NCBI GenBank assembly: GCA_028716565.1
Contig: JAQUPL010000001.1
Location: 211,545 to 275,544 of the forward strand
From: Candidatus Omnitrophota bacterium
GTDB taxonomy: Bacteria; Omnitrophota; Gorgyraeia; Pluralincolimonadales; Pluralincolimonadaceae
DNA length: 64,000 nt
Direction of reading: 5' to 3'
A model generated the notes under the pieces. That model did no database searches and was not told the origin of the DNA. It saw only the letters and a program-made list of their open reading frames with translations. Positions 6,516-63,492 of this stretch are shown here, piece after piece (position 1 is the first letter of the stretch; each line of letters starts with the position of its first letter). Made by a program: the position numbers and the translations under genes.

Positions 6516-7223
6516 TCAGCCCCTGTATAAAAGTTCGAATATCAGAAGCGTGGCGAGTATGCCGACCACAGATCCGGCTATCGCCTCCCATACCGTATGC
6601 AGCCCTTTCCTTACCCTCGATATGGCCAACAGTATCGCCATCAGGAAGGCAAGCGCGGAGGCCACGCCGTTGAGGGTAAGCAGTGTTATCACGGTAAAGA
6701 CAGAGAAACCGAGCGCCGAATGGCCGCTGGGCCAGCCGCCCCTTAGCGGCGTCCCCCTCCTCAAAAGTATCTTGATTATTATCACCAGGGAAATTACCGC
6801 GACGAGCGCGATGAAAGTGATGTGCCAGGGCGATTGCCTTATGCGGGAGATGCCCTCAGAGAGGTCTATTAGTTTTACCGTCTTGAAGAAGATCAAGTAT
6901 CCGACTATGACAGCGTAAACGGACGTGACGAAGACGCACCCTGCCGCGATATCCTTCGCCAGCTTGGCCATATGGTGGAATTCCTTGGTGAACATATCTA
7001 CGGCCAGTTCGAGGGCAGTATTGAACATCTCGGCTACGATCACCAGGGTGACCGCGCTTAAAAGCAGGATGAATTCCACGGGCGGCAGTCCCGCGACCAG
7101 GCCGAGTATTATGACCGCCGCGCCTATCACAAAATGGATGCGCATGTTCCGTTGGGTCTTGAGCGTATGCTTAAGCCCCTCTATCGCGTAATTGAAAGAC
7201 TCTGTAAGGCCGCGTTTTTTCAT
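6516..7223 (-). CDS. dgkA: fusion protein: prokaryotic diacylglycerol/undecaprenol kinase (DgkA) domain + PAP2 lipid-phosphate phosphatase domain
   Basis: The N-terminal 120 aa match DAGK_prokar (SFNYAIEGLKH...VAEMFNTALE). The C-terminal half carries PAP2 motifs K-x7-P (KILLRRGTP), PSGH and SR-x5-H-x3-E (SRVRKGLHTVWE). Confidence 0.8.
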   Translation of the reverse strand: MKKRGLTESFNYAIEGLKHTLKTQRNMRIHFVIGAAVIILGLVAGLPPVEFILLLSAVTLVIVAEMFNTALELAVDMFTKEFHHMAKLAKDIAAGCVFVTSVYAVIVGYLIFFKTVKLIDLSEGISRIRQSPWHITFIALVAVISLVIIIKILLRRGTPLRGGWPSGHSALGFSVFTVITLLTLNGVASALAFLMAILLAISRVRKGLHTVWEAIAGSVVGILATLLIFELLYRG

Positions 7224-7621
7224 AATCCCCGGAGGATCCTTCCTTCCGCTCTTCTCATCTCTTTCCTTTTCGACGAAGAGGTATCGTCGTATCCGGAGAG
7301 ATGGAGTATCCCGTGCACGATGTATAATCTCAATTCTTCCGCCGCCGTGGACCCGAAACGCCTGGAATTTTTTGCGGCCGTTTGCGCCGATATGGCGATA
7401 TCCCCGCTCTCGAAGGCTATCACGTCGGTGCTCTTATCCCTCTTCCTGTATTTTTTATTCAACCTTCTTATTCCCGCGTCATCCGTAAAGAGTATGCAGA
7501 TACGGTCCCTGTTTCCCCCGGCCATCGACAATATCTTTTCAGCGCACTTTACGGCTGCCTTTTTAGGGAACGGCAGCTTTACGCCTTCGGTCAATACGGC
7601 AACGCGGCCCGGCTTAGGCAC
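7220..7621 (-). CDS. ybeY: rRNA maturation endoribonuclease YbeY
   Basis: 133 aa; metal-binding motif HGILHLSGYDD (HxxxHxxGxxH family). Confidence 0.9.
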   Translation of the reverse strand: MPKPGRVAVLTEGVKLPFPKKAAVKCAEKILSMAGGNRDRICILFTDDAGIRRLNKKYRKRDKSTDVIAFESGDIAISAQTAAKNSRRFGSTAAEELRLYIVHGILHLSGYDDTSSSKRKEMRRAEGRILRGL

Positions 7622-27478: not shown

Positions 27479-30232
27479 TCAGAACTTTACTTCAAGTTCC
27501 TTTGTGTCCGCGGGAACGCTGATCCTGTTCTTGCCGAGCGTCAGGATATACCCACCCGGAGGCGGCGTCGCGCAATCGGTAGACAGCTTGACAAAGCCCT
27601 TGGCTCGCGAGCTTTCTACTTTGAAAGATACCTTGCCAAAATACGTCGGGGCATCCTTTATCTCTATGACCTTGCCGTCATCGAGCCACGAGTCCGGGAT
27701 GCAGGACAAAAGCACCAGCTTATCGCCGTCCTCGCGAAAAAGCATGTCGCGCAGCAGTAAAATATAATGCGCGGCCGACCAGCCGTGCGGGACGTCGCCT
27801 ACTATCCCTTCGGTGATCTCCCTCAATCCTTTAGAGTTGACCTTGGTCGGCATCGCCTCCATCCATCCGCCGGGGCAGGATTGGTGCTCTATACCCCACT
27901 CGATGCTCTTAAGCGCGACGTCTTCCATTCCAATATATATAAGGGGATGCGCGAGCTTGAAATTATATCCCCAGAAGAGCTGCTCGTATTCAACGAACCA
28001 CCCGCCGTCATAGTCCGAGAACTTCCCGGCGTTCTTCCAATATTGCTCATATGAAGTCTTGAACAGCTCCGCAGGTACCGGGATGCCCATATTCTCTCCC
28101 GGGAATAATGCCGGCCTGTGCGCCCACGCCATCTGCGTATCGCCCAGTATGCGGTGATCCATGTCCTTTATGCGCATCTCTTTGGGCCAGTAATCGGCGA
28201 ACCCGGGCATGAACGACAGCCCGTTCTTCTTCATCGATTTTTCGATGCTCGCGATAGTGGCGGAATGGAGGCTTCCGTATTCGGCTTTCATCCATTTGGC
28301 GTCATCCGGTTTTCCGAGTATCTGCGCCGACTCGTAAGCCGCCTTAAGGCCTATCATCGCCCACCAGTCATCTACGTAAAGGTAGGCAGGTATCTTGAAA
28401 TTGTCCTGGCTCACCCCCTTAGGAAGGAGCCCGTAAGCCACGTCTTCCTTCGGCAGTGACATCTGCGGGGCCCGGACCTTCCTTATGAGTTCGCACGCCG
28501 ACTTCATCCTGGGATATGCGGCCTCCAGGTATTTAACGTCCTTTGTCAGCCGGTAATGCTCGTAAGGCGCGAAGATGCTGCCGCCGAGCTCGTCTACGTA
28601 GCCGCCGCCTTCCTTGTAATTGAAGTGTTCGGTTGAGGCGCGCGCCTCTTCGGTAAGCCCTGCCTTGTCGAGCGCGTTGTCCATATCTATCGCGTCATGC
28701 ATGAAGAACGATGTATATTCATACGGGCCCGGGAAAAGTTTATGTTCCTCGTCCATTATCAGGATGTAATAGAGAGATGAATAAAAACAATCACTGTAGC
28801 GCTTATCCGGGATATTCATTACGAGCGGGATGCGGCCTTTCCAGTATTTGAACGTCAGCGCGAGCGCTTCGTCGAAACCTTTATCCTTGATGTCGTTAAA
28901 TGACAACTCCGCTCCTGTGCCTGATGGTACGATAAAATCAAGGGATTCTGTAGTACCGGCAGGTATCTTTTTCCTGTAAGATAGCGAATCCCTCAGGTCT
29001 TTGCCTAGAGGGCCTTCCGCCCTTTCGTCAAGGAAGAGCCGCGGCGCGCCGTTTATCTTTACGGTATGGTCGGCGTCGTATTCGATCGTCTTCATATCCG
29101 TAACTTTCCATTTAGGGTAAAGCGGGTTCGGCCGGATGACTGCCATTATCAACACTTCTTTATCCCGGGCGCTTGTATTTTTGACAGATTCCCTGGCAAA
29201 GGTCAGGACTTTGCCTGCTTTTTCATCGAACCAGGAGAATATCTTCGTCTCGCCTTCGATACCGTTGCCTTTCCACGATACCACCGTCACAGGATACCCG
29301 CCGTCGACCAATTTCCAATCGGTATGGAGCGTTTCCGGGGTATAGAGCCGGTCGTCATCGTTTACCCAGAAACTGACCCTGAACGGGTAAGGATAGACGG
29401 CAAAAGAACCGTCCTTTCCGATGAAAGTCTTGAATTTGGAACCCTCCCACCCGGCGAGGCCGCGGGCCTTGTTCAGGCCTTTGTGTTTGGCGATATCGTC
29501 CCAGTCCTTGAATTCGATCTTCTTCATCACGCTTTCCTTCCCTTTGTTGTCTTCACAGTTGATCTTTATGTGGCGTTTCCCGAATATGTTAGCATATATC
29601 CTGTCCTGTCCGCCAGTGCAAACCTCTTTATTATAGACGGTCTTCCGGCGGTTATCCTCTTCGATCTCCACGCGGTACGATCTTGGGAAGTCCTCCCCCC
29701 ATGTTATAAATAAAGCGCCGATATTCCTGTCCTTCTTGAGCTCTATCGAGATCGTAGTCCTGCCGTTATCGCTCGAGGTCTTTATCGGTATCTCGTCATC
29801 GAGCCCTTTGATCCTGATCTCCCAGATCGAATATCCCCACGCCGTGCCGCGCTCCTTTAAGTCCAGTTTTATGAATCGCGCCTTCTTCCTCCCGAAATAT
29901 ACGTCGTCGACTACCCCTTCGCCTTCGGACGTGGAATAGGCGTTCTCCCAATTTTTCCCGTCCTCTGATATGAGTACGTCGTAGGATCTCGCGTAAGCGG
30001 CCTCCCAGTTTATGATCAGGCCGACCAGGTCCTCGGTCCTCCCGAGGTCTATCTGGAGCCATTGCCTGTCGGAGAACCCGCTCGACCATCTCGACTGCAG
30101 GTTATTGTCGAACGCGTAAGAGGGCCCGGTGGAATCGTTTTCGGATGATGACGCATTCACCGTTGCGGCGTTTGAAAGATGGGCTATCGCCAAAAATATG
30201 CAAAGGATCATTGCGGTCTTTATCTTTTTCAT
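27479..30232 (-). CDS. secreted protein with two N-terminal F5/8 type C (discoidin) domains and a large C-terminal domain, possibly a carbohydrate-active enzyme
   Basis: 917 aa with a signal peptide ([22 protein letters not shown]). Two discoidin-like modules (..QWLQIDLG...[25 protein letters not shown].. and ..[24 protein letters not shown]..) precede ~600 aa of unassigned, possibly (alpha/alpha)6-like, sequence. Confidence 0.55.
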
Positions 30233-31056
30233 TGCACGATCTCCAGGGAGAAGTCTATCGCCTTTACTGAATGTGTCAGCGCGCCGATAGATATCATCTC
30301 TACGCCGGTTGAAGCGATCTTTTTTACGTTCTTGAGGTTAACGCCGCCCGAGACTTCCAGCCTCAGCCCGTGACGGTATTTGTCGCGCAAAGCTACGGCG
30401 GACTTGATCTCTTTCAAATCCATATTATCCAGCATTATTATGTCGGGGTTGATCTTAAGGGCTTCGTTAAATTGCTTAAGGTCCTGGACCTCTATCTCGG
30501 CCTTTATCTTTTTCCTCTGGCAGGACCTGACGGCTCGAGAGACGGCGTCCCAGTTGTAACCGGCCGCGGCAAGATGGTTATCCTTGATCAATACCTGGTC
30601 GTGGAGGCCTATGCGATGATTGGTGCCGCCGCCGGTCTTGACCGCGTATTTCTCGAGTATGCGCAGTCCCGGCGTGGTTTTGCGGGTGTCCATTATCTTT
30701 GTTCTATAAGGTCTTACCGCTTCAACGAATTCGGCCGTCAAAGTAGATATTCCCGACAGGCGGCTTAGGAAGTTTAAGGCCGTCCTTTCGGCGCTGAGTA
30801 TTGCTTTCGCATCCCCCTCTATATATGCGATCTGCTGTTCCGGCCGTATCGGTTCGCCGTCCATCGCGAGCGGCATGAATTTTATCCCGGAGTTGCGCAT
30901 GACGAATACCGCCATAGCTATCGTGATGCCGCAGAGCACGCCTTCTTCGCCGGATATTATTGCCGCCTGCGCCGTCTTCGGCTTTTGGAAGAGTGCCGCG
31001 GACGTTATGTCCCTGTCTGCGGCGTCCTCATCGAGTGAGCGGCGTATCATCTCCAA
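30229..31056 (-). CDS. nadC: nicotinate-nucleotide diphosphorylase (carboxylating), quinolinate phosphoribosyltransferase
   Basis: 275 aa; TALNFLSRLSGI, DTRKTTPGLR, IGLHDQVLIKDNH and a C-terminal TIM barrel. Confidence 0.93.
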   Translation of the reverse strand: MEMIRRSLDEDAADRDITSAALFQKPKTAQAAIISGEEGVLCGITIAMAVFVMRNSGIKFMPLAMDGEPIRPEQQIAYIEGDAKAILSAERTALNFLSRLSGISTLTAEFVEAVRPYRTKIMDTRKTTPGLRILEKYAVKTGGGTNHRIGLHDQVLIKDNHLAAAGYNWDAVSRAVRSCQRKKIKAEIEVQDLKQFNEALKINPDIIMLDNMDLKEIKSAVALRDKYRHGLRLEVSGGVNLKNVKKIASTGVEMISIGALTHSVKAIDFSLEIVQ

Positions 31057-40154: not shown

Positions 40155-40231
40155 ATGGTCGGGGCGAGCGGACTTGAACCGCTGACCACTTGTACCCCAT
40201 ACAAGTGCTCTACCAAACTGAGCCACGCCCC
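40155..40231 (-). tRNA. tRNA-Pro (anticodon GGG)
   Basis: Minus-strand CGGGGCGTGGCTCAGTTTGGTAGAGCACTTGTATGGGGTACAAGTGGTCAGCGGTTCAAGTCCGCTCGCCCCGACCA folds as a cloverleaf: 7-bp acceptor, GCTC/GAGC D stem, CTTGT/ACAAG anticodon stem with loop AUGGGGU, AGCGG/CCGCT T stem, encoded CCA. Confidence 0.9.
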
Positions 40232-40254
40232 GGATTATTCGGATTTAGAAAATA

Positions 40255-41923: not shown

Positions 41924-42475
41924 TTATTTTTTCCCGTGCGTCCCGTTCAAGAGCCTTGCCCCGCGCAATATGTAACCGATGCCCGACGCAAGGGTAAATA
42001 TCACCGCGAGGTACCATATATATTCTGAATGCTTGTATAGCAAAAGGACGCTGATTATCGCCATCATCTGGAAGAAAGTGGTCAGCTTCCCGAGCACGCT
42101 GGGCGCTATCTTGATTTCGCCATTGGTCAGGAAAATTACGATGACGCCTATGGCTATAATTATATCGCGGCTGACAACGATTATTGGCACCCAGAGCGGC
42201 AGCCTTATGCTCCCGCTCCAGACCGTGAGCGCGATAAATGACGTTATGAGCAGGAACTTGTCGGCTATCGGGTCCATTATCGTGCCTAAGGGCGTCTTTT
42301 GTTTGAGGACGCGCGCCAGGAAACCGTCTATGGCGTCGGTAAGCACGGCTATCACGAATATCGTGAGCGCTATGAATCTCAGATGGTCCTGTTCCGGCTT
42401 ATAATAGAGGATGAGGCCTAAAAAAACCGGCGTCAAGAGGATCCTGAGTATCGTTATCTTGTTTGCGATGTTCAT
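41924..42475 (-). CDS. pgsA: CDP-diacylglycerol--glycerol-3-phosphate 3-phosphatidyltransferase
   Basis: 183 aa; CDP-alcohol phosphatidyltransferase motif DAIDGFLAR...GTIMDPIADK. Confidence 0.88.
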   Translation of the reverse strand: MNIANKITILRILLTPVFLGLILYYKPEQDHLRFIALTIFVIAVLTDAIDGFLARVLKQKTPLGTIMDPIADKFLLITSFIALTVWSGSIRLPLWVPIIVVSRDIIIAIGVIVIFLTNGEIKIAPSVLGKLTTFFQMMAIISVLLLYKHSEYIWYLAVIFTLASGIGYILRGARLLNGTHGKK

Positions 42476-42478
42476 ACC

Positions 42479-43078
42479 CTATTTGTCGGTTATGATCTGC
42501 ATCCTGTTGAACGGCATCAGGACGAAGACCGCCTTTCCTATAAGGCCGCTTTTCGGCACGAACCCCCAATACCTGCTGTCTTTACTGTTTGCGGAATTAT
42601 CGCCCAGGACAAGGTAGGAATCATTCGGCACGGTTATGGGCTTATCCCCCTGCCAGACATCACCCCTATTGTAATAATAGATGCGCCTGAACGCGGGAGG
42701 GTCTTCCACTACTTTGCCGTTCAGGACGATCTTGCCGTCCTTGATCTCGACTGTGTCTCCCGGGCCGGCGATGAACCTTTTTATGAACGAGACCTCGGGG
42801 TTCGGCGGCGGCGCCTTGAAGACTACTATGTCGCCGGTCTTCGGCTCCCTGAATCCCGGGAGGCGGAAGTTTACGAACGGCAGGCGCGGCCCGTAAATGA
42901 ATTTTACTACGACGATCCTGTCGCCGATAAGGAGGGTCGGTATCATCGAGCCGGACGGGATCTTATAGAACTCGAATATGAAGATCTTGATCACGAACGC
43001 CAGGAGAACGGCGACGACGATTATCTCGACCGTCTCCCTGAACCAGGATTTCTTTTTCTTGGCCTCTTTATCAGTCAT
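42479..43078 (-). CDS. lepB: signal peptidase I
   Basis: 199 aa; catalytic Ser in PSGSMIPTL, Lys box GDRIVVVKF, and GDNSANSKDSRYWGFVP. Confidence 0.93.
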   Translation of the reverse strand: MTDKEAKKKKSWFRETVEIIVVAVLLAFVIKIFIFEFYKIPSGSMIPTLLIGDRIVVVKFIYGPRLPFVNFRLPGFREPKTGDIVVFKAPPPNPEVSFIKRFIAGPGDTVEIKDGKIVLNGKVVEDPPAFRRIYYYNRGDVWQGDKPITVPNDSYLVLGDNSANSKDSRYWGFVPKSGLIGKAVFVLMPFNRMQIITDK

Positions 43079-43088
43079 TTTTCTCCCT

Positions 43089-44879
43089 TTAGAGTTTAAG
43101 GACCGCCATAAAGGCTTCCTGCGGTATCTCGACTTTTCCGAACTGCTTCATGCGTTTCTTGCCTTCTTTTTGCTTCTCCCAGAGTTTGCGTTTTCTCGAT
43201 ATGTCGCCGCCGTAGCACTTCGCGGTGACGTTTTTTCCGACCGGCCTGACCGTCTCCCTGGCGATTATCTTGCTTCCTATCGCCGCCTGGAGCGCTACCT
43301 CGAACAACTGCCTGGGGATAAGCTCCTTCAATTTAGTGACGAGCTGGTTGCCCTTCGTATGCGCGTTGTCCTTATGGATAATGAACGAGAGCGCGTCGCA
43401 CGGTTTGCCGTTTATAAGTATGTCGAGCTTCACGAGGTCGCTCGCTATATATTCCTTGAACTCGTAATCCAGCGAGCCGTAGCCCCGGGTCATCGATTTT
43501 ATTTTATCATAAAAATCCACAATAATCTCGGATAAAGGGAACTCATAGATGAGCATCGCCCTTGTCGGGTCGAGATACTCGGTCGATTTGTATATCCCCC
43601 TTCTCTCCTGGCATAACTGCATCACGTTCCCGAGCGAATCCGATGGCGATATGACGAACGCCCTTATGAACGGCTCCTCGATCTCGTCGATCTCCTGCGG
43701 GGCCGGGAGCTTGCTCGGGTTCTCGATCTCGACCGTCTCGCCATTGGTCTTTATGACTTTATATACGACGCTAGGCGTGGTCGCGATGAGGTTAAGGTTA
43801 TATTCCCTTTCAAGGCGTTCCTGTATGATCTCCATGTGAAGAAGGCCGAGGAAACCGCAGCGGAATCCGAACCCGAAAGATACGGAGGACTCGACTTCAT
43901 ATATAAAGGAAGCGTCGCTCAGTTCCATCTTTTCCAGCGCGTCCCTGAGGAACGGGAAGTCCTTTGCGTTTACCGGGTAGAGGCCGCAGAAGACGAGAGG
44001 CCTTACTTTCTTATATCCGGGGAGCGCATCGGCCGCCGGCCTCCTGAAATCAGTTACCGTATCACCGACATGGACCTCTTTTGGCACCTTGATATTACAG
44101 GTGATGTAGCCGACCTCTCCGACCGAGAGTTCATCGACAGCGACAGGCGCAGGCTTGAATACGCCCACCTCTTCTATGTCGTAGACGCGGCCGGTGCCCA
44201 TCATCTTGATCTTCATTCCCTTCCTGATCGTCCCGTTCTTGAGCCTTATATATACGACGACGCCCTTGAACGTATCGAACGCCGAGTCGATTATAAGCGC
44301 CTGCAGGGGGTTTTCTGTTTCGCCCTTCGGAGCCGGTATTTTGTCGACGATCGCCTGTATTATCTCGTCTACGCCTATCCCCGATTTAGCGCTGGCCATT
44401 ATCGGCTCTATCTCAGTCAAATGGAGCGTATCCTTGAGTTGCTGGACCACCCTATCCGGTTCGGCGCTCGGCAGGTCTATCTTGTTTATTACGGGGATGA
44501 TGACGAGGTTGTGTTCCCGCGCGAGATAGAGGTTGGCGACTGTCTGGGCCTCGACGCCCTGCGCCGCGTCGACGACGAGAAGCACACCCTCGCATGCGGC
44601 AAGCGCTTTTGAGACTTCGTAGGTGAAATCGACGTGGCCGGGCGTATCGATGAGGTTGAGGATGTAATCCTTCCCTCCGGCCGAATGGTTTAACCTTACG
44701 GCTTTGGCCTTGATGGTGATGCCGCGCTCCCTCTCAAGGTCCATACCGTCGAGCATCTGGTCGTGGAATTCCCTCTGGGAGATAGCCCCTGTCTTCAGGA
44801 GCAGCCTGTCGGCTAAGGTCGATTTCCCGTGGTCTATATGCGCGATGATGCAGAAATTGCGGATTAACGACTTATCCAT
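43089..44879 (-). CDS. lepA: translation elongation factor 4 (LepA)
   Basis: 596 aa; [23 protein letters not shown]-domain and the LepA C-terminal domain. Confidence 0.96.
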
Positions 44880-46342
44880 TATTTGATCGTTTTGGACATC
44901 CTGTCGACTATGGCGATGAGGTCCTTGGCTTCCTTGTCGGTATGAGCCTCGCTGTAGACCCTGAGGATCGGTTCTGTGCCCGAAGGCCTTATCAGGAGCC
45001 AGCTCTCGTCGTCGAAGATGAATTTCAGGCCGTCGTAGGTCTTTATGTCGACGATCTTACGCTTGAATATCTTTTCTGAGCTTTTTCCCCGCTGATGCGG
45101 GACTTCGCCCTGCAGTTTCGAGAAGAGGACCTTGACGACTTTTTCCCTGGTCTTAAGCGGTATCTCGACGTCCTGCCTGTGATACCTGAATTTGCCGAAC
45201 TTCTTTTCCATATTTTCTATAAGTTCGAGTATGGGCTTCTTCTCCTGCTGCATCATCTCGACGAGCAAGAGCCCGGTCAATATGCCGTCCCTTTCCGGGA
45301 TGTAGTTCTTCACGCCTATGCCGCCCGATTCCTCCCCGCCGACCAGGACGTTCTCGCGCTGCATCAGTTTCGCGATGTGCTTGAAGCCGACCGGCGTCTC
45401 GAAGAATTTCAGGTTATAATACTTCGCTATCTTGTTCATGAGCATCGGTCCGGCTATATTCTTGACGAGCGCCCCTCTCCAACGCCTGTTCTCTATGAAA
45501 TGCAGGGCGATAAGGCACATTATCTCTCCCGGGTTAATGAACCTTCCGCCCGGGGCGACCGCGCCTACCCTATCTGCGTCGCCGTCGGTGGCCAGGCCTA
45601 TGTCGTACCTGCCCCTCTTCATGATCTCCATCAGTTTTGGCATGTTATGCGGGAGTGGCTCAGGCTTCAGCCCTTCGAATGAAGGGTTCGGCTCGGCATT
45701 GATAGTATCTATTTTTACCTTAGTGCCTTTTAAGACGGCCGCGTGATAACTGTTCCCGGCCCCGTGCATCGCCTCCGCCACCACTTTGAGGCCGCAGTTC
45801 TTCAAAAGGTCCAGGTCGAGATATTTCCGGACCGCGTCGAGATATTTCGGCATCGGGTTTATCACCTCGACCTTCTTTGTCCTGACGGCCTCTTCGAGCG
45901 ATACGGTCTTTACCTTATTCTTGTATAGGAAGGCCTCGACCTTATGGGTCACGGTCTGGTCCGCAGGAGAGCCGAACGGCGTCTTTATCTTGAGCCCGCT
46001 GAACCTTCCCGGGTTATGGCTCGCGGTGATGATGAGCCCTCCGTTCAAACCCAGCAGCCTTATATTGTAGCTTGTCGTCGGCGTAGGCGACGGCCTGTCA
46101 GAGAGATATGTCTTTATGCCGTTGGCGGCCAAAACCTCTGCTACGGCCTGGGCGAATTTATCGGATATGAAACGGGTATCGTAGCCGATTATGATACGGC
46201 GCGGGGCCTTGAATTCCTTATTGAAATGATCTGCGCATGCCTGCGCCACTATCCGCACATTCTCAAAAGTGAAATCCTCGGCTATCAGGCCTCTCCAGCC
46301 GTCTGTCCCGAATTTGATCTTCGATTCCTCTGCCTTCTTCAT
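44879..46342 (-). CDS. phosphoglucomutase/phosphomannomutase family protein
   Basis: 487 aa; KFGTDGWRG, active-site [13 protein letters not shown], and metal-binding DGDADR. Confidence 0.85.
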
Positions 46343-46366: not shown

Positions 46367-47638
46367 TCACCCGATATGCAGGACTTCAGAAATATTTTTT
46401 TCCCCGGACTTGTCCGCGGTCCCTATGACGGCCATATTCAGGCGCCGGTCAACGAATACGCGCCCGGCGACCCGCCTGACGTCATCAGGAGTTATTTTTT
46501 CGATCTCGGCGACGACTTCCTGCGGCGCGGGGATCTTACTTTCCGCCGAAAGATGCTCGCCCATCCATAACATCTGGTCAAGCGTATCCTCCAACCCCAG
46601 GAGAAGCTGGCCTTTATAGAACTCGCGGGCGCGCTCGAACTCATCCTTGCCCACGGTCTTCTCTTTTATCTTTTTAAGTTCCTTCATTATAAGTTCGGTG
46701 GCTTTTATCACATTTTTGTTGTCGAGCCCGGCTGAGATGAGAAAAGCGCCGGTATCGTTCAATTTTTTGGTGTGGGTATTTATTTCGTATGCCAGGCCCC
46801 GTTTCTCGCGGATCTCCTTAAAGAGCCTGCTCGACATATTGCCGCCCAGGATAATATTCAGTATCGTCAGGGCGTATTTATCGGGATCGCCGCGGCCGAA
46901 AGCGCGGATCCCTATCGCGAGGTGCGCCTGCTCTGTTTCTTTCGAGAGCGACTTAAAATTCGGCCTCTTCTGCGCCTCCGAGGCATTTTTATATGAGGAT
47001 TTTATTCCGGGCCGCGCGGCAGCCAGGTATTTTTCGCAGGATGAGAAGAACCTGTCCGAATCAAGGTTCCCGGAGGCTGAGACTACTATATTTGCGGGAT
47101 TATAATATTTATTTTTATAACCGGATATATCGGTTCTCTTCATATCCGAGACGGTCTCGACCGTGCCGGCGAGGTTCCTGCCGAGAGGCTGGTCCGGCCA
47201 GAGCAATTCCACAAGCATCTCCTGGACGTGGTGGTTCGGAAGGTCCATGTAAAGTTTGATCTCTTCCTTGATCACCGTCTTTTCCTTTTTAATATCGCCG
47301 GGATCGAGTTTTGCGTTCAGGACCATGTCCGAGAGGATGTCGAGGGCAATGTCCATATCCCTGCTTAAGACCTTGACGAGATAGCAGGTGAATTCCTCGG
47401 AGGTGAAGCCGTTCATCGCCCCGCCTCTACCTTCGATAGCCTCTTTTATATCGTCATTCGTCCTCTTCTTGGTCCCCTTGAAAAGAAGGTGCTCCAGGAA
47501 ATGAGATACGCCGCTTACCGCCTTCGTCTCGTAACGCGCCCCGACGTTAAGCCAGATGCCTATAGAGATAGAATCCCTGTTAGAGATCTCCTTGACCACG
47601 AACCGCGCGCCGTTGTCGAGGGTCTTGAATTTATACAT
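46367..47638 (-). CDS. M16 family zinc metallopeptidase (insulinase-like)
   Basis: 423 aa; inverted zinc motif HFLEHLLFKGT (HxxEH). Confidence 0.88.
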   Translation of the reverse strand: MYKFKTLDNGARFVVKEISNRDSISIGIWLNVGARYETKAVSGVSHFLEHLLFKGTKKRTNDDIKEAIEGRGGAMNGFTSEEFTCYLVKVLSRDMDIALDILSDMVLNAKLDPGDIKKEKTVIKEEIKLYMDLPNHHVQEMLVELLWPDQPLGRNLAGTVETVSDMKRTDISGYKNKYYNPANIVVSASGNLDSDRFFSSCEKYLAAARPGIKSSYKNASEAQKRPNFKSLSKETEQAHLAIGIRAFGRGDPDKYALTILNIILGGNMSSRLFKEIREKRGLAYEINTHTKKLNDTGAFLISAGLDNKNVIKATELIMKELKKIKEKTVGKDEFERAREFYKGQLLLGLEDTLDQMLWMGEHLSAESKIPAPQEVVAEIEKITPDDVRRVAGRVFVDRRLNMAVIGTADKSGEKNISEVLHIG

Positions 47639-48056
47639 TATGCTTCAGCCTTTCGAGGTATGATTCGAGGATCAGTTGCGCGGCCATCTTGTCTATGACG
47701 CTCTTCCGTTTCTTTCTCGATACATCGGCGGATATCAGGAATTTTTCGCTCTCTTTAGTGGAAAGCCTCTCGTCGTAGGTATAGACCGGGATCGAGAGGC
47801 GGCCCTTGAGGGTCTCGACGAATTCGTTCACCTTTTCGGCGCTCTTTCCTTTAGTCCCGTCCATATTTATCGGCATGCCCACGACCACCGACTCGGCCTT
47901 GTATTCCCCGACGATCTTCTCTATCTCTTTCAGGTCGGTCTCAGGGTCTTTCCTTGTTATGACGGTCACACCCTGGGCTATTATGCCGAGCGGGTCGCTT
48001 ACCGCAACCCCTATCCTTTTCTCTCCGGCGTCCAGCGCCAACACTCTCATAGGCAT
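47631..48056 (-). CDS. ruvX: Holliday junction resolvase-like nuclease RuvX/YqgF
   Basis: 141 aa; MRVLALDAGEKRIGVAVSD RNase H-like fold. Confidence 0.9.
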   Translation of the reverse strand: MPMRVLALDAGEKRIGVAVSDPLGIIAQGVTVITRKDPETDLKEIEKIVGEYKAESVVVGMPINMDGTKGKSAEKVNEFVETLKGRLSIPVYTYDERLSTKESEKFLISADVSRKKRKSVIDKMAAQLILESYLERLKHNV

Positions 48057-49141
48057 TTCTTAAGGTCCTTGTCCGATTTCATGAGCCCGACAAGCCTCTT
48101 GACGTCCTGCGCCCTGTCGCGGCTGCAGACGAGCACGCAGTCGCCGTCGCGGACCACTATAATATCGGATACGCCTATTGTCCCGATTATGCCCTGCGAG
48201 GATACTATCACCGAATTTTTAGTGTCTATCTCCTTGTGGGACCCGATCGTGAAATTGCCGTCCTTGTCTGTCGTGAGATGGCGCGCGAGCGAATCCCAGG
48301 AGCCGAGGTCGTCCCAGTAGAACTTCCCTTCGACCGCGAATATCCTCTTCTCTTTTTCAAGGACGCCGTAGTCTATCGAGATCTCCTCGAGGTTGGGATA
48401 GACGCTGTTAAGTTTCCCGTAAAAGCTGAAATGGCCGATGCTCGGTTCCAATAGCTGCAGTCCGAGATACAGCCTCGGCAGGTTCTCCTTTATCGCGTCG
48501 AGGATGCTCGTCGCTTTCCATATGAACATGCCGCTGTTCCAATAATACCTCTTCTCCTTCAGGAATTTCATCGCGTTCCGGAGGCTGGGTTTTTCGACGA
48601 ACGCCATTACCCTGTGGACCTTCGCCTTCAGGCCCGGGCCTTTTATCCTGAACTGGCCGCTTGTGTCTATCCTCAGGTAGCCGTATCCTGTCGCCGGGAA
48701 AGTAGGTTTTACGCCGATCGTCACAAGGCCGTTAGATGCCTCGGCGACCTTCACTCCGGTCAAAAGCGCGTCTATGAATTTATCCTTATCCTTTATGAGG
48801 TGGTCCGAAGGCAGGACGATCATCGTCGCCTGGGGATCAAGTTTCTTAATTATCATCGCGGCGAGCCCGCATGCCGCCGCGGTATTTTTCGCGGCCGGCT
48901 CGGCGATTATGTTCTTTATGGACGGCAGGTCGGCTTTTATCGAGCCCAATTGCTCCTTGTTCGTTATGACGTATATCCTCTCATTGGGCACTATGGACCC
49001 TATCCTGTCTACAGTCTCCTGGATAAGGGAACGCCTGCCCATGAGCTTAAGCGTCTGCTTCGGGGTCTTTGCCCTGCTCTTAGGCCAGAACCTCTCTCCT
49101 CTTCCGCCGGCGATAATTACCGCATAGATATTTTTATTAAT
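48047..49141 (-). CDS. manC: mannose-1-phosphate guanylyltransferase (nucleotidyltransferase-only form); proposed non-canonical ATT start at 49141
   Basis: The six-frame ORF begins at the internal Met at 49042. The 33 codons immediately upstream and in frame encode the family's N-terminal motif (NKNIYAVIIAGGRGERFWPKSRAKTPKQTLKL). There is no ATG/GTG/TTG between the in-frame TAG (49156..49154) and that Met. ATT at 49141..49139 is preceded by GGAGG at a 6-nt spacing and overlaps the trpA stop (ATTAA). Confidence 0.75.
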   Translation of the reverse strand: MNKNIYAVIIAGGRGERFWPKSRAKTPKQTLKLMGRRSLIQETVDRIGSIVPNERIYVITNKEQLGSIKADLPSIKNIIAEPAAKNTAAACGLAAMIIKKLDPQATMIVLPSDHLIKDKDKFIDALLTGVKVAEASNGLVTIGVKPTFPATGYGYLRIDTSGQFRIKGPGLKAKVHRVMAFVEKPSLRNAMKFLKEKRYYWNSGMFIWKATSILDAIKENLPRLYLGLQLLEPSIGHFSFYGKLNSVYPNLEEISIDYGVLEKEKRIFAVEGKFYWDDLGSWDSLARHLTTDKDGNFTIGSHKEIDTKNSVIVSSQGIIGTIGVSDIIVVRDGDCVLVCSRDRAQDVKRLVGLMKSDKDLKKCL

Positions 49142-49931
49142 GGGAGGCCTCCGCTAATTTTTGGACGTAGTCGCCTACGCGTATTATGAAATCCTTGCGT
49201 TTAGAGTCCTTCTCTATCTCTTTAACGATCGCCGAGCCGACGATGACGCCGTCGGCGACCCTGGCTATCTCGCGGACCTGCCCAGGCCTGGAGACGCCGA
49301 ACCCGACGCAGACAGGTTTATCCGAATACCTTTTTATCAGGCGGACGCGGGATGCGAGCTCTTTCGGGAGGTTCGCCCGCGCGCCGGTGATACCGGTGAG
49401 TGAGACGTAATAAATGAAACCTTTCGATCCCTTCGAGACTAGCCTGATCCTGTCGGGCGTGCTCGTCGGGCTTAATAAAAATATCGTGGCGAAATCCCTC
49501 TTCTTGGCTTCAGCTACCAGGTCTTCCGCCTCATCCGGCGGCAGGTCCGGGATGATGACACCGTCGACGCCGTTTCCCGAGCAATCCGAGACGAATTTCT
49601 TCAATCCGTATTTCAGGACCGGGTTATAGTATCCCATGAGGATTACAGGTATCTCCGTGGAGTTCCTTAACCCTTTGACGAGCTTGATTATATCTTTTAG
49701 CTTTGTGCCGCGTTTCAGGGCGCGCTCGGACGAGGCTTGTATAACCTGGCCGTCGGCGACCGGGTCGGAGAAAGGCACGCCGAGCTCTATGATGTCGACC
49801 CCGCGCTTATCGAATTCAAGCACGAGTTTTTTCGTAGTCGAAAGGCCGAAATCCCCGGCCGTAAAGAACGCGACCAGCGCCTTTTGCTTTTTCTTTCTAA
49901 GTTCCCTGAATTTTTTATCTATTCTGTTCAC
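49137..49931 (-). CDS. trpA: tryptophan synthase alpha chain
   Basis: 264 aa; VAFFTAGDFG...ELGVPFSDPVADGQVIQ. Confidence 0.94.
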   Translation of the reverse strand: MNRIDKKFRELRKKKQKALVAFFTAGDFGLSTTKKLVLEFDKRGVDIIELGVPFSDPVADGQVIQASSERALKRGTKLKDIIKLVKGLRNSTEIPVILMGYYNPVLKYGLKKFVSDCSGNGVDGVIIPDLPPDEAEDLVAEAKKRDFATIFLLSPTSTPDRIRLVSKGSKGFIYYVSLTGITGARANLPKELASRVRLIKRYSDKPVCVGFGVSRPGQVREIARVADGVIVGSAIVKEIEKDSKRKDFIIRVGDYVQKLAEASH

Positions 49932-49989: not shown

Positions 49990-51180
<1,191 letters not shown>

Positions 51181-51215: not shown

Positions 51216-51244
51216 ATATTAGCACAGAGTCCAAGAGTAGTCAA
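51216..51244 (-). promoter_or_regulatory. putative sigma-70 promoter for trpBA (-35 TTGACT, 17-nt spacer, -10 TAATAT)
   Basis: Minus-strand TTGACT at 51244..51239 and TAATAT at 51221..51216. Confidence 0.45.
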
Positions 51245-59605: not shown

Positions 59606-61516
59606 CTATTCTATTTTCAATATAATCACCGTCATGTCGTCGTGTTGGGGCGTGCCTTGGCTGAATTTCTCGACTTCCCCTACCAGCTTATCGGCCAGGC
59701 CCTGGGCCGAAAGCCGCCTGTTCAATAATGCCGTATCGAGTATTTGTTTCTCGCCGAATTCTCTCTTGTTCTTGTCCCTCGCCTCTGATATGCCGTCCGT
59801 ATACATCACGAATACGTCTCCCGGTGAAACATCGAACTCATCGGCCGTAAACTCCGAGCCGGGGATTATACCTATGGGGCTTCCGACCGATTGCGTCAGC
59901 GCCACCACGTCCCCGGAATCTTTCACCCAGACGAGCGGGTTATGGCCGCCGTTCGAATATTTTATCTTCCTCTCCTTGGGTTTGTAGATGAGGTACTGGA
60001 GGGTGACGAACATCCCGGAGACCCCTTCTTCAACGAGCCTGTCATTTATCGCGGTAAGGGCTTCATCCGGTTCGTTGAAGTCATGGGAAAGACCGCGGAA
60101 ATCCGCCATCGCCTTCGCCATGAACAGGGCTGCCGGGACGCCTTTGCCTGAGACATCTCCGATGACGATCCCCAGCCTGTCTTCCTTCAATTTGACGACA
60201 TCGTAAAACAATTTTATGAAATCGTAAAAATCCCCTCCGACATGTTTTGCCGGAACGAACTTGACCCCTAATTCGACGCCTTTAGTCCCCGGAAGGTTTT
60301 GGGGCAATAGCGACTGCTGTATCCGGCTTGCTATCTGGAGCTCTTTTTCTATAAGGCCCTTCTCGAACCTCGTTATAATGAACTGGTTAAGTGTCACGGC
60401 AGGATACGCGACGCACAGCAATATCAGTATGCTTACATAATCCAACCATATATTAAAAAAAGAAAATGAAATATACGATATAGCCGATATTCCTGCTGCC
60501 AGGACCGCGAAAAAAGCCAGACCCTCGAACGGGGTCCTTTTCGGGAGAGTAAGACCGATGGCTGAGCCGATAATAAGGAGTATAAGTAATATTCCCGGCC
60601 TGTATACCCGATCGATGAAATCCTTTTTAAGGATCGTGTTAATCGCGCTTGCCCTTATGCCTACGCCCGGGTATAAGCTGGACATCGGAGTAGACCAAAA
60701 GTCCTCGCTTCCGGTCGCGGTCAACCCTATGATGACGATCTTGTCCTTCAGCATCTTAAGGTCTATGGCAGGTTTTTCGCCGTCCTGCGCCTGTACGCCG
60801 GCCAATGCCACGGCCGCGTAAGATGCCCTTTTAAATTTGGCGTATTCTCCGGGATAATTTATCCACATCATCCTGTTCGCGTCAGTCCTGACATTGAGTT
60901 TCTCGGGTGTTGTGCCTAAAAAATGCGCGGCCACGAGCGCGTCCAAGGATAAGTATTTTTTTCCTTCATGGGTGAGCTCTACCGGAACCTTCCTGACTTT
61001 CCCGTCCGGCTCTACTAGGATGTTCACGAAACCTACGCCTTTGGCGTTCCGCTGCAGTTCCGGCAACGGCAGGGTAATATCCCTGGGCTTGATGATGTTC
61101 TTCCTCATGTCGTCCTGGCCGAGGTCGAAAAAAGCCGAATAGAATATGTTGCCGGTTATCTTGGTCTGTTTAGATAGTTTTATGTCTTCCTCTGGCTTAT
61201 CCTCCTCCGGTTCGCTGAAGATGATATCGAAGACTATGGTCTTGGGGCCGTAATCATCTATGATATCCAGCAATTCTGCGTGATATCCCCTGTCCCACGG
61301 CCACCTGCCGAAGGCCTTAAGGGCCGCGTCGTCTATCTCTATGATGACTATATCGGGACTTGCCGGCCGCGGGCCGCGCATCTTGAAAAGTAAGTCAAGC
61401 CCCTGGTATTCAGCGAGCTCAAGGATGCCTGTCAGGTAGGCAAAGCCTATGACCGCCGCGCAAATTAGCCCTATTAAAAGCCCGCTTTTCTTTTTCATTC
61501 TATTATTATCTCGCAT
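59606..61516 (-). CDS. CHASE2 sensor domain-containing PP2C/SpoIIE-family serine phosphatase
   Basis: 636 aa; TM helix, periplasmic CHASE2-like region (..IVIIEIDDAALKAFGRWPWDRGYHAELL..), three TM helices, then a PP2C domain (GDVSGKGVPAALFMA...MYTDGISEARD). Confidence 0.75.
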   Translation of the reverse strand: MRDNNRMKKKSGLLIGLICAAVIGFAYLTGILELAEYQGLDLLFKMRGPRPASPDIVIIEIDDAALKAFGRWPWDRGYHAELLDIIDDYGPKTIVFDIIFSEPEEDKPEEDIKLSKQTKITGNIFYSAFFDLGQDDMRKNIIKPRDITLPLPELQRNAKGVGFVNILVEPDGKVRKVPVELTHEGKKYLSLDALVAAHFLGTTPEKLNVRTDANRMMWINYPGEYAKFKRASYAAVALAGVQAQDGEKPAIDLKMLKDKIVIIGLTATGSEDFWSTPMSSLYPGVGIRASAINTILKKDFIDRVYRPGILLILLIIGSAIGLTLPKRTPFEGLAFFAVLAAGISAISYISFSFFNIWLDYVSILILLCVAYPAVTLNQFIITRFEKGLIEKELQIASRIQQSLLPQNLPGTKGVELGVKFVPAKHVGGDFYDFIKLFYDVVKLKEDRLGIVIGDVSGKGVPAALFMAKAMADFRGLSHDFNEPDEALTAINDRLVEEGVSGMFVTLQYLIYKPKERKIKYSNGGHNPLVWVKDSGDVVALTQSVGSPIGIIPGSEFTADEFDVSPGDVFVMYTDGISEARDKNKREFGEKQILDTALLNRRLSAQGLADKLVGEVEKFSQGTPQHDDMTVIILKIE

Positions 61517-63492
61517 TCCGGCAAGGCTGACAAGAATTTCCTGCCGTATGGTTTTTGCAATATCCTGCTGTCCAGGATAACGACGATGCCGGTGTCGTAT
61601 TTCGTGCGCACCAGCCTGCCGAAGCCCTGCTTTAATTTCAATATCGCCTGCGGGAGGCTGTAATCCTGGAACGGGTCCCCGCCTTTATCCTTTATCTTTT
61701 CCATCCTCGCTTCTGCGATCGGGTGGTCAGGCACGGCAAAGGGCAGCCTCGTGATAATAACGTTGCCCAACGCCTCGCCCGGCACGTCGACGCCTGTCCA
61801 GAACGAATCTACGCCGAATATCACCGAGCCGACGTCGCGTTTGAAAGCCTCGAGCATCTTGGTGCGCGGGAGCCCGGCGCCCTGTTTTAATACGGGGATG
61901 CCGAGGTCATGGAGGAAAGGCGCGGTCTCCTCATATACGTCATCCATGAACCTGTAACTCGTGAACAGGACGAACGCCCTCCCCTCGGTCCGTTCGAGGT
62001 AATCTTTCAGTTTATGGACCACTTCCGCCTTGTATTTATCGTAGTCGTTAGGGTCCGGCATCTTTTTCGGGATATGGATCTTCACATTATTTGCGTAATC
62101 GAACGGTGAGCCCAGTAATTTCTCGTCGCACCTCTTTAAGCCGAGGCGGCTTTTTATGTATTCGAAATTCTTCTCGGTCGATAACGTGGCGCTTGTAAGC
62201 ACGACCGTGTCTATCCTCGAAAAGAGCGTCCCGTTGAGCGCCGGGGCGATGTTGATGGGCGCGCACTCGAGCGATATCCTGCGCCTGCTTGCGGCCCGCA
62301 GGCTGCCCGATGCCTCCGCCCAATAGACGTAATCCGGCGCGCCCATCGACAGGGACATTTCCAATGCCTGGATTAGCGCGTCCGTCCTGTTCATGTAATA
62401 CTTGAAATCCATCTCTTCTTCTTTGGAGCGTGCCCGCTCGAACTTGTCCTCGAGCATGCGGGAGAGAGCCTTGAGCGGTTTTGAAAGGCAGTCATCCGTG
62501 AAATCCGGCTCACTGACCCTGCGTATGGTATCCCTGTCGAGCCAATCCGCGACGCCGTCAAAGAAAGTGTCCGAGGCCTTCTTCAGGTCGGAAACAAAGT
62601 CTTTCAGCCCGTCATCGCTGACAGAAGCAAGGAACCCTTTTTTCTTCGACGGGTTATACAGGGAATCGAGGAGGTATTTTACCCTGAAGTTAGATATCTC
62701 ATGACCGAGATGTTCGGTCGCGACATCTTCAATCGTATGCGCTTCGTCGAAGACGACGCACGAGTAATTCGGAAGGAGCGAGTACTCGGATTGGCGCAAG
62801 GCAAGGTCGGAGAAGAAGAGATGATGGTTCACTATCAAAATATCCGCTTCCTGCATATTGCTGCGCGCCTTCATAAGGAAACAATCATTCCTGTAAGGGC
62901 ACTTCTTCCCTAGGCAGGTGTCCGGCTCGCAGCATACCCGCTCCCATACCTTCGGGCTGGGCTCCTCGCTGAAATCCGAACGCGAGCCGTCTGTCGTGAC
63001 CTTGGACCAGGCGAGGATATTCCGCAGGTCGCCGACCTCCTCCTTTGATTCGAAGAGGTCCGTCTTTGAAGAGAAGACCCTGTTGAGCCTCCTGAGGCAG
63101 AGATAATTAGAACGACCCTTTACCAGGCAGTAAGTGAAGTCGAACGGCATGACGGACTTGATGAACGGGATATCTTTTTTTATGAGCTGTTCCTGGAGGC
63201 TGATGGTGTTTGTGGAGATGACCGCTTTTTTACCGGATGAGACCGCGGAATCTATCAGGGGCACGAGATAAGCGAAGGATTTACCGACGCCTGTGCCGGC
63301 CTCGGTTATAAGGTGCCTCTTCTTCCTGATGGCGTCCTCGACGGCCTTTGCCATCTGACCCTGCTGCGGGCGGAATTCGTAATCTTTAAAGGCGTTCGCG
63401 AGCAGCCCGCCCTTGCCGAAAAATCCCTCCGCGTCGATATTAGCGGCCTGATCATTCGTGCCTCTGAGCAACGGGCTGTTAGGTAAGATCAT
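61495..63492 (-). CDS. dinG: ATP-dependent DNA helicase, DinG/XPD (Rad3) family with Fe-S cluster domain
   Basis: 665 aa; Walker A AGTGVGKSFAYLVP, four Cys in the FeS insert (CCEPDTCLGKKCPYRNDC), a DEAH-like VVFDEAHTIED motif, and a C-terminal helicase domain. Confidence 0.85.
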   Translation of the reverse strand: MILPNSPLLRGTNDQAANIDAEGFFGKGGLLANAFKDYEFRPQQGQMAKAVEDAIRKKRHLITEAGTGVGKSFAYLVPLIDSAVSSGKKAVISTNTISLQEQLIKKDIPFIKSVMPFDFTYCLVKGRSNYLCLRRLNRVFSSKTDLFESKEEVGDLRNILAWSKVTTDGSRSDFSEEPSPKVWERVCCEPDTCLGKKCPYRNDCFLMKARSNMQEADILIVNHHLFFSDLALRQSEYSLLPNYSCVVFDEAHTIEDVATEHLGHEISNFRVKYLLDSLYNPSKKKGFLASVSDDGLKDFVSDLKKASDTFFDGVADWLDRDTIRRVSEPDFTDDCLSKPLKALSRMLEDKFERARSKEEEMDFKYYMNRTDALIQALEMSLSMGAPDYVYWAEASGSLRAASRRRISLECAPINIAPALNGTLFSRIDTVVLTSATLSTEKNFEYIKSRLGLKRCDEKLLGSPFDYANNVKIHIPKKMPDPNDYDKYKAEVVHKLKDYLERTEGRAFVLFTSYRFMDDVYEETAPFLHDLGIPVLKQGAGLPRTKMLEAFKRDVGSVIFGVDSFWTGVDVPGEALGNVIITRLPFAVPDHPIAEARMEKIKDKGGDPFQDYSLPQAILKLKQGFGRLVRTKYDTGIVVILDSRILQKPYGRKFLSALPECEIIIE

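Follow-up and report, generated by a model that had tools for sequence, protein, structure and literature searches.

Background

Experimentally confirmed cases of initiation at codons that are none of AUG, GUG or UUG are very few in bacteria and limited in E. coli to the genes infC and pcnB (bioRxiv 10.1101/063800), and infC is known to start with AUU or AUC across bacteria, with such near-cognate codons reaching only ~1–2% of the level of AUG (PMC5499595). The work of Hecht et al., in so far as it is summarised in PMC5499595, gives this same figure for AUA, AUC, AUU and CUG, while in an E. coli reporter AUU was found to be 6–8 fold weaker than AUG or GUG (PMC3592434). At short stop-start junctions re-initiation and de novo initiation are about equal (PMC3592434), and a Shine-Dalgarno (SD) sequence shields re-initiation from the initiation factor IF3 (PMC2268962). 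We report the comparative analysis of a stop-start junction at which a metabolic gene, manC, appears to begin with ATT. The junction lies in a stretch of 64,000 nucleotides, hereafter the window, from Candidatus Omnitrophota bacterium (assembly GCA_028716565.1, contig JAQUPL010000001.1, 211,545–275,544), where manC directly follows trpA; all coordinates of the manC/trpA junction refer to the minus strand.

A mechanical listing of the open reading frames of the window begins manC at an ATG at 49042 and so arrives at a protein of 331 amino acids. The original prediction for this locus held that such a call leaves out a conserved motif encoded in frame further upstream and that manC can be completed only from an ATT overlapping the trpA stop codon, which would reflect either genuine AUU initiation or an ATG that had become ATT by error or mutation. 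In the present work, we read this junction in the window and in the relatives of the source organism, and we show that the ATT at 49141..49139 is, with a probability that we put at about 0.85, the initiation codon of manC. Comparison between the relatives further indicates that the AUU/AUC start is a maintained weak start of an Omnitrophota clade and not an error.

Results

The trpA-manC junction

Read directly, the 3' end of trpA is GCG GAG GCC TCC CAT TAA, with the CAT codon at 49142..49140 and the TAA stop at 49139..49137. The frame of manC runs from TAG (49156..49154) through CGG AGG CCT CCC ATT (49141..49139) AAT AAA AAT ATC TAT GCG GTA ATT ATC and onward through GCC GGC GGA AGA GGA GAG AGG TTC TGG CCT ... 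CTC to the ATG at 49042..49040; from the ATT it is uninterrupted through this ATG to the stop at 48047. The TAG at 49154..49156 closes the frame upstream and rules out any more distal start. The claim that no ATG, GTG or TTG stands in the manC frame between this TAG and 49042 is correct to the base. By chance alone, 37 successive codons lacking a canonical start would not be unusual ((61/64)^37 = ~0.17), and the junction is of significance because of homology and conservation within the clade, rather than because of the chance absence of canonical starts.

The putative initiation codon (ATT, 49139..49141) is preceded by the SD sequence GGAGG at 49148..49152, which lies within the trpA codons GCG GAG GCC (A-E-A) and is separated from the ATT by a spacer of 6 nucleotides (49147..49142), exactly where the original prediction had placed it. 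The ATT and the trpA stop TAA (49137..49139) have T49139 in common and form the sequence ATTAA with an overlap of 1 nucleotide. The predicted duplex between the SD and anti-SD sequences amounts to -9.5 kcal/mol. For the 37 other genes of the window the median is -4.0, and only 5 of them are as strong; a full GGAGG is found for only 4 of those 37, for which the choice of start is approximate. The only ATG close by, at 49125..49123, was considered as a start and rejected, for it is out of frame and is followed by TAA after one codon.

The upstream codons as part of the ManC protein

Translated from the ATT, the manC coding sequence (48047..49141, minus strand) specifies 364 amino acids plus the stop codon, and its matches in Pfam and the Protein Data Bank (PDB) identify the product as a nucleotidyltransferase of the mannose-1-phosphate guanylyltransferase type. 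The Pfam family NTP_transferase (PF00483; E = 1.4e-34, 120.3 bits with a cut-off of 21.2) covers residues 7–288 of the ATT-started protein, residue 7 corresponding to position 2 of the profile, and ManC_GMP_beta-helix (PF22640) is matched with E = 9.9e-17 and 61.1 bits (cut-off 27). The closest solved structure is that of the mannose-1-phosphate guanylyltransferase of T. maritima (PDB 2x5s), which aligns with ManC residues 7–351 at E = 1.7e-65. Residue 4 of 2x5s is aligned to residue 7 of ManC (ALILAGGSGERFWP against AVIIAGGRGERFWP), so that the crystallised enzyme starts just 3 residues ahead of the motif. The likeness to 2x5s and 2cu2, together with a PGM/PMM gene nearby in the relatives, points to GTP and mannose-1-phosphate as the probable substrates of ManC.

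The nucleotide-binding signature of these enzymes, GGxGxR(L/F)WP, takes the form AGGRGERFWP in ManC and is encoded at 49111..49082, among the 33 N-terminal codons (49043..49141) that are dropped when only canonical starts are called. It is present only with translation from the ATT, and a start at the internal ATG (49040..49042, Met34) would remove the strand beta-1 and the entire GGxGxR loop; the contention that the call at 49042 misses an in-frame upstream motif is thus borne out, the Pfam domain itself beginning at residue 7.

In a comparison of 14 related loci over the 32 codons from the start to the internal Met, the pairwise codon differences number 1218 synonymous against 296 nonsynonymous. 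Where V, G, P, T and L are invariant in this N-terminal segment, four to six different codons are used to specify them, and the invariant W, P, G and T residues of the upstream 32 codons are written with several codons. This pattern argues that the upstream segment is a translated frame under purifying selection at the level of the protein. An alignment of orthologues, the check that had been proposed for this locus, gives a consistent picture: the upstream motif is encoded in the orthologues, and the internal Met is not conserved, being replaced by Val in the loci L168 (GTT) and L173 (GTG).

The start codon across relatives

A protein search yielded a tight group of Omnitrophota homologues with 73–97% identity to ManC. 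The DNA of these relatives was taken from the encoding contigs and from one metagenome scan, and every junction was read, to give 16 distinct loci, the window included, from ENA, JGI, NCBI and Logan assemblies (>15 assemblies) that derive from independent samples and assemblers. The homologous start codon is ATT in three of these loci (the window, L089 and L174) and ATC in the remaining 13 (L082, L085, L086, L087/88, L090, L091, L168, L169, L170, L171, L172, L173 and L175), whilst ATA, ATG, GTG and TTG occur at this codon in none of the 16 loci of the clade. Genuine AUU initiation, one of the two alternatives originally put forward, is supported by this pattern and by the SD sequence that accompanies it: GGAGG, AGGAGG or GAGG is found ~6 nucleotides upstream of the ATT or ATC (ATY) in every locus except L085, which has the weaker GGAAAGG, and an alignment of 12 loci has the GAGG core (almost) without variation. 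Only the position at 49141 joins an invariant AT-pyrimidine to an SD spacing of 6 nucleotides in all loci. Thirteen of the 16 loci have a stop in frame at most 7 codons ahead of the ATY, and in L170, where the frame reads TGA CCC ATC, this stop is the codon but one before the start. ATA, which makes up 58% of the Ile codons inside these genes, is found at the start codon in 0 of the 16 loci, for which the naive probability, not corrected for shared ancestry, is <1e-5.

Of the 17 lineages of the clade that were sampled, 16 have kept the near-cognate start. The remaining one, L167 (P0011), has an ATG two codons upstream of the ATY position and a spacer of 35 nucleotides after trpA. In a neighbour-joining tree, which carries no support values, L167 takes a nested position next to L168 and L170, both of which bear ATC, and this suggests that the ATG of L167 was regained.

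More distant manC loci among the matches listed, with ~40–46% identity and a closed upstream frame, were used as an outgroup. All 149 starts among them are canonical (144 ATG and 5 GTG) and are placed 6–14 codons before the GG motif, a range that takes in the clade ATY, which precedes the AGG of the GGxGxR motif by 10 codons. Two outgroup loci have trpA directly upstream of manC, L057 (Verrucomicrobiota), with the junction TGAtATG, and L059 (Kiritimatiellae), with TAATG, in both cases ~15 codons before the motif. It appears that a coupled trpA-manC junction with ATG is the older state, in which the Omnitrophota clade swapped ATG for ATY, and the linkage of trpA and manC may itself date far back in this part of the phylogeny.

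The coupling overlap of 1 nucleotide between the trpA TAA and the ATT, to which the original prediction also drew attention, is real in the window, but its exact geometry is not conserved among the relatives. Besides the ATTAA of the window, most relatives have an ATC-A/G-ATAA overlap (in the forms ATCAATAA / ATCGATAA), and the trpA stop lies 1 nucleotide upstream of the ATC in L172 and 17 nucleotides upstream of it in L085. In L085, L087/L088 and L172 an insertion of ~20 nucleotides between the conserved trpA tail (KKL...) and the SD (alignment A1, columns 60–80) alters the C-terminus of TrpA and the position of its stop and leaves the SD and the ATC intact. Given this variable stop-start geometry, it is the SD together with the ATY, and not the exact overlap, that forms the conserved unit.

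Annotation of manC in the databases

The truncation of manC in the window recurs in public gene calls (proteins P0003–P0023), ~13 clusters of the clade ManC at 90% identity having been called at 331 amino acids. Other public calls start at V, L or M codons inside the GGxGxR motif, e.g. MAGG... or MSRAK..., and for P0016, called by NCBI, the start is an ATA that also lies in the motif; L086 3001–3003 was likewise noted among the miscalled N-termini. The calls P0001 and P0002 extend 9 codons into trpA; their sequences are ...RRRPIKKNIYAV and ...RRLPINKNIYAV, in which Ile occupies the ATT position. The upstream in-frame ATG used by these two calls was examined as a candidate and set aside, since it arises incidentally from the trpA codons TAT-GTC (Tyr-Val), which create an ATG in the manC frame (L082 3001–3030, and also L089, L174 and L168); in most lineages an in-frame stop comes after it and ahead of the ATY, and the stop between the TAT-GTC-derived ATG and the ATY is TGA in L089 and L174 and TAG in L168.

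Gene context of the junction

The upstream cistron trpA (49137..49931, minus strand; Pfam Trp_syntA, E = 3.5e-87) is preceded by trpB (49990..51180, minus strand), the first gene of an apparent operon, and PF00291 upstream of trpA is conserved in synteny. The starts listed for trpA and trpB, at 49931 and 51180 on the minus strand, are both GTG and represent only the first canonical codon in each case. Downstream of manC, the start of ruvX (47631..48056, minus strand; Pfam RuvX, 1.4e-48) overlaps the end of manC by 10 nucleotides (48047–48056), and the end of ruvX overlaps the start of an M16-peptidase gene by 8 nucleotides (47631–47638, minus strand). The order trpB-trpA-manC-ruvX-M16 peptidase, a tightly packed operon, is conserved in all relatives, and a TrpA homologue stands directly upstream of manC in every locus of the clade. 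No functional reason for the linkage of genes for tryptophan synthesis and GDP-mannose is apparent.

A search by consensus match found no promoter- or terminator-like site between trpA and manC; upstream of trpB, at 51244..51216, the same kind of match revealed TTGACT-17-TAATAT with a TG extension, the only promoter-like site to have one. Scans of the window with Rfam and for tRNA genes returned nothing relevant to the trpA-manC junction. The sole RNA gene found in the window by ARAGORN and Rfam is a tRNA-Pro (GGG) at 40156–40232 on the minus strand.

Amongst the genes of the window, manC is the only one whose domain precedes the first canonical start. A window-wide habit of non-canonical starts was considered and rejected, since in the four other substantial genes that have a long distance from the upstream stop to the first canonical start (6516–7433, 27479–30337, 43089–45056 and 59606–61684) the first Pfam domain comes after that start. 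On the plus strand, 42422–43099 is a stop-to-stop frame of 225 codons with not a single ATG, GTG or TTG; it may have stayed open by chance, either between minus-strand genes or antisense to them. An open reading frame at 30229–31056 on the minus strand encodes 275 amino acids from a TTG start and, by eye, presumably resembles nicotinate-nucleotide pyrophosphorylase.

Discussion

Alternative explanations

ATT differs from ATG by one base, and the window alone would be insufficient to exclude a mistake in sequencing or assembly, or a recent change from ATG that is confined to this genome. The comparison with orthologues from >15 independent assemblies refutes this second alternative of the original prediction and reduces its probability to practically nil: samples and assemblers that are independent of one another gave ATT or ATC in 16 loci and ATG in none, P0002 was found on 21 contigs, and the ~13 clusters of close homologues were called at 331 amino acids independently. 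A true start at the internal ATG at 49042, with the upstream similarity a decaying remnant, matches the mechanical call of 331 amino acids and most database entries. The strong protein-level constraint on the upstream 32 codons (1218 against 296) and the replacement of this Met by Val in L168 and L173 make such a start very improbable; no SD sequence is found before 49042, and the protein would be deprived of beta-1 and of the GGxGxR loop, whose beginning in 2x5s is at residue 4. The +1 frameshift site of prfB contains an internal SD upstream of a stop codon, and the trpA-manC junction, with its overlapping frames and an internal SD before the stop, resembles it, so that a TrpA-ManC fusion made by a programmed frameshift near the end of trpA, for which manC needs no start of its own, can be envisaged. 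We regard this fusion as extremely improbable, because the sequence CCC-CAT-TAA offers neither an X_XXY_YYZ nor a prfB-like site for re-pairing, and tRNA-His would be unable to re-pair on AUU; moreover, TGA stands one codon before the ATC in L170, the trpA stop is upstream of the ATC in L085 (by 17 nucleotides) and L172 (by 1 nucleotide), and L167 has a 35-nucleotide spacer and its own ATG, the geometry varying where the SD and the ATY are constant. Further in-frame ATY codons do exist downstream in the window, the ATC at 49129..49127 and the ATT/ATC at 49117..49112, but initiation at one of these is likewise very improbable: L086 and L170 have GTT or GTA, and other relatives ATA, at the codon homologous to that at 49129, ATA predominates in the II pair, and the spacing from the SD would be 18–30 nucleotides.

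Several observations weigh against the ATT as the one start of manC, or against its being maintained as a weak start. In L082 (P0001 by protein sequence) an ATG and a TTG inside trpA are in frame with manC and open to it, and an isoform longer by 9 residues is formally possible in L082/P0001; L172 has TTG and GTG in frame upstream, and in L089 a GTG stands two codons ahead of the AGG motif. Since the lineages share ancestry, the 16 loci overstate their independence, and the N-terminus is called from the comparison of sequences of uncultured organisms. L167 shows that manC works with ATG, the third base of the ATY doubles as the opening base of a trpA codon (TAA, CAA or CGA), from which part of the constraint on the ATY could stem, and the regulatory rationale of low, IF3-sensitive or coupled expression is an extrapolation from E. 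coli. The weak start could be under selection, or it could be no more than tolerated. In the latter case the ATY would be the start but selectively neutral, a decay of ATG that is tolerated since coupling to trpA and a strong SD suffice, with no regulatory device involved. This is possible, though we would not wager on it. L167 functions with ATG, as do the outgroups with the same coupling, and a search for a regulatory RNA structure found none: conserved structure or sequestration of the SD was rejected on an RNAalifold consensus energy of -1.33 kcal/mol with 1 covarying pair and a z of +1.16 for the junction in the window, whose folding was no better than that of shuffles. On the other hand, ATG is one substitution away and yet never occurs at this codon, with synonymous sites near saturation. 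In the window T49139G would convert the trpA sequence CAT TAA TAA to CAT GAA TAA; in the ATC lineages a G at the third base would change trpA Gln or Arg to Glu or Gly. The cost to TrpA, one C-terminal residue added or altered, would be small. That the third base is only ever a pyrimidine, with no G and, despite the preference for ATA among Ile codons, no A, is suggestive of a constraint upon it, an argument weakened by the overlap with trpA and by shared ancestry. The contrary proposal, that the AUU/AUC start is a selected, infC-like regulatory device on a metabolic gene, with selection against both ATG and ATA, is one that we offer only tentatively.

Proposed mechanism and significance

With the ATT as its initiation codon, manC would be read from a polycistronic trpB-trpA-manC-ruvX message, as we infer from the promoter match upstream of trpB and the lack of any promoter- or terminator-like site between trpA and manC. 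The strong, unstructured SD in the last trpA codons would set the 30S P site on the AUU or, alternatively, a ribosome that had just terminated at the overlapping UAA of trpA would be placed there. Initiator tRNA would then decode AUU as fMet, and the product would be a 364-residue enzyme of the mannose-1-phosphate guanylyltransferase type with an intact GGxGxRFWP loop. The weakness of the codon would presumably be offset by the strength of the SD and the nearness of the trpA stop. By analogy with the E. coli systems, the weak start might hold the output of ManC low and tie it to the translation of trpA and/or to IF3 activity, which we consider conceivable but doubtful; if true, the synthesis of GDP-mannose would be subject both to IF3 activity (growth state) and to the flux of ribosomes through trpA.

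In manC, an uncultured phylum would provide a new case of the near-cognate-start type: an AUU/AUC start that spans a clade, is well supported by comparison and belongs to a metabolic gene. The near-cognate is retained down to ~73% protein identity in an AUU/AUC-only pattern otherwise described for infC, and the locus represents a natural test bed for the interplay of SD strength, stop-start overlap and IF3 proofreading on a weak start. Most database entries of the Omnitrophota ManC have 331 amino acids or arbitrary internal starts and are without the catalytic loop. Metabolic reconstruction and structure prediction could be led astray by this, and other conserved near-cognate starts are probably hidden by the same calling artefact.

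Comparison with known systems

At the level of sequence, manC would belong both to the class of near-cognate starts known from infC and pcnB and to the stop-start overlapping gene pairs. It is like infC in its conserved AUU/AUC initiator, in the interchange of U and C at the third base and in having a recognisable SD, which is functional in infC (PMC5499595, PMC3592434), and also in that the start is close behind an upstream stop, as in the E. coli thrS-infC junction UAA GGU AUU. Unlike infC, manC encodes a sugar-nucleotide enzyme with no obvious autoregulatory loop, and its ATY is confined to one Omnitrophota clade, where that of infC is found across all bacteria. With the pcnB gene of E. coli, manC shares the property of not encoding a translation factor, and the expression of pcnB is reported to be limited by its AUU (Binns and Masters 2002, as cited in PMC3592434; 10.1101/063800). 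The start of pcnB, however, varies between AUG, GUG and UUG in other phyla (10.1101/063800), whereas the near-cognate of manC is kept in 16 of 17 lineages and, unlike that of pcnB, lies in a stop-start overlap. The likeness to T. maritima 2x5s, in the two-domain architecture and the N-terminal GGxGERFWP, bears on the identity of the protein only. To the ATGA/TAATG class of coupled genes the junction in the window is related by its same-strand neighbours, its 1-nucleotide overlap and the position of the SD within the upstream gene (PMC10666635, PMC3592434), and the outgroup loci L059 (TAATG) and L057 (TGAtATG) provide the canonical form of this very trpA-manC coupling junction, from which manC of the Omnitrophota clade differs in that its restart codon is AUU or AUC and not AUG.

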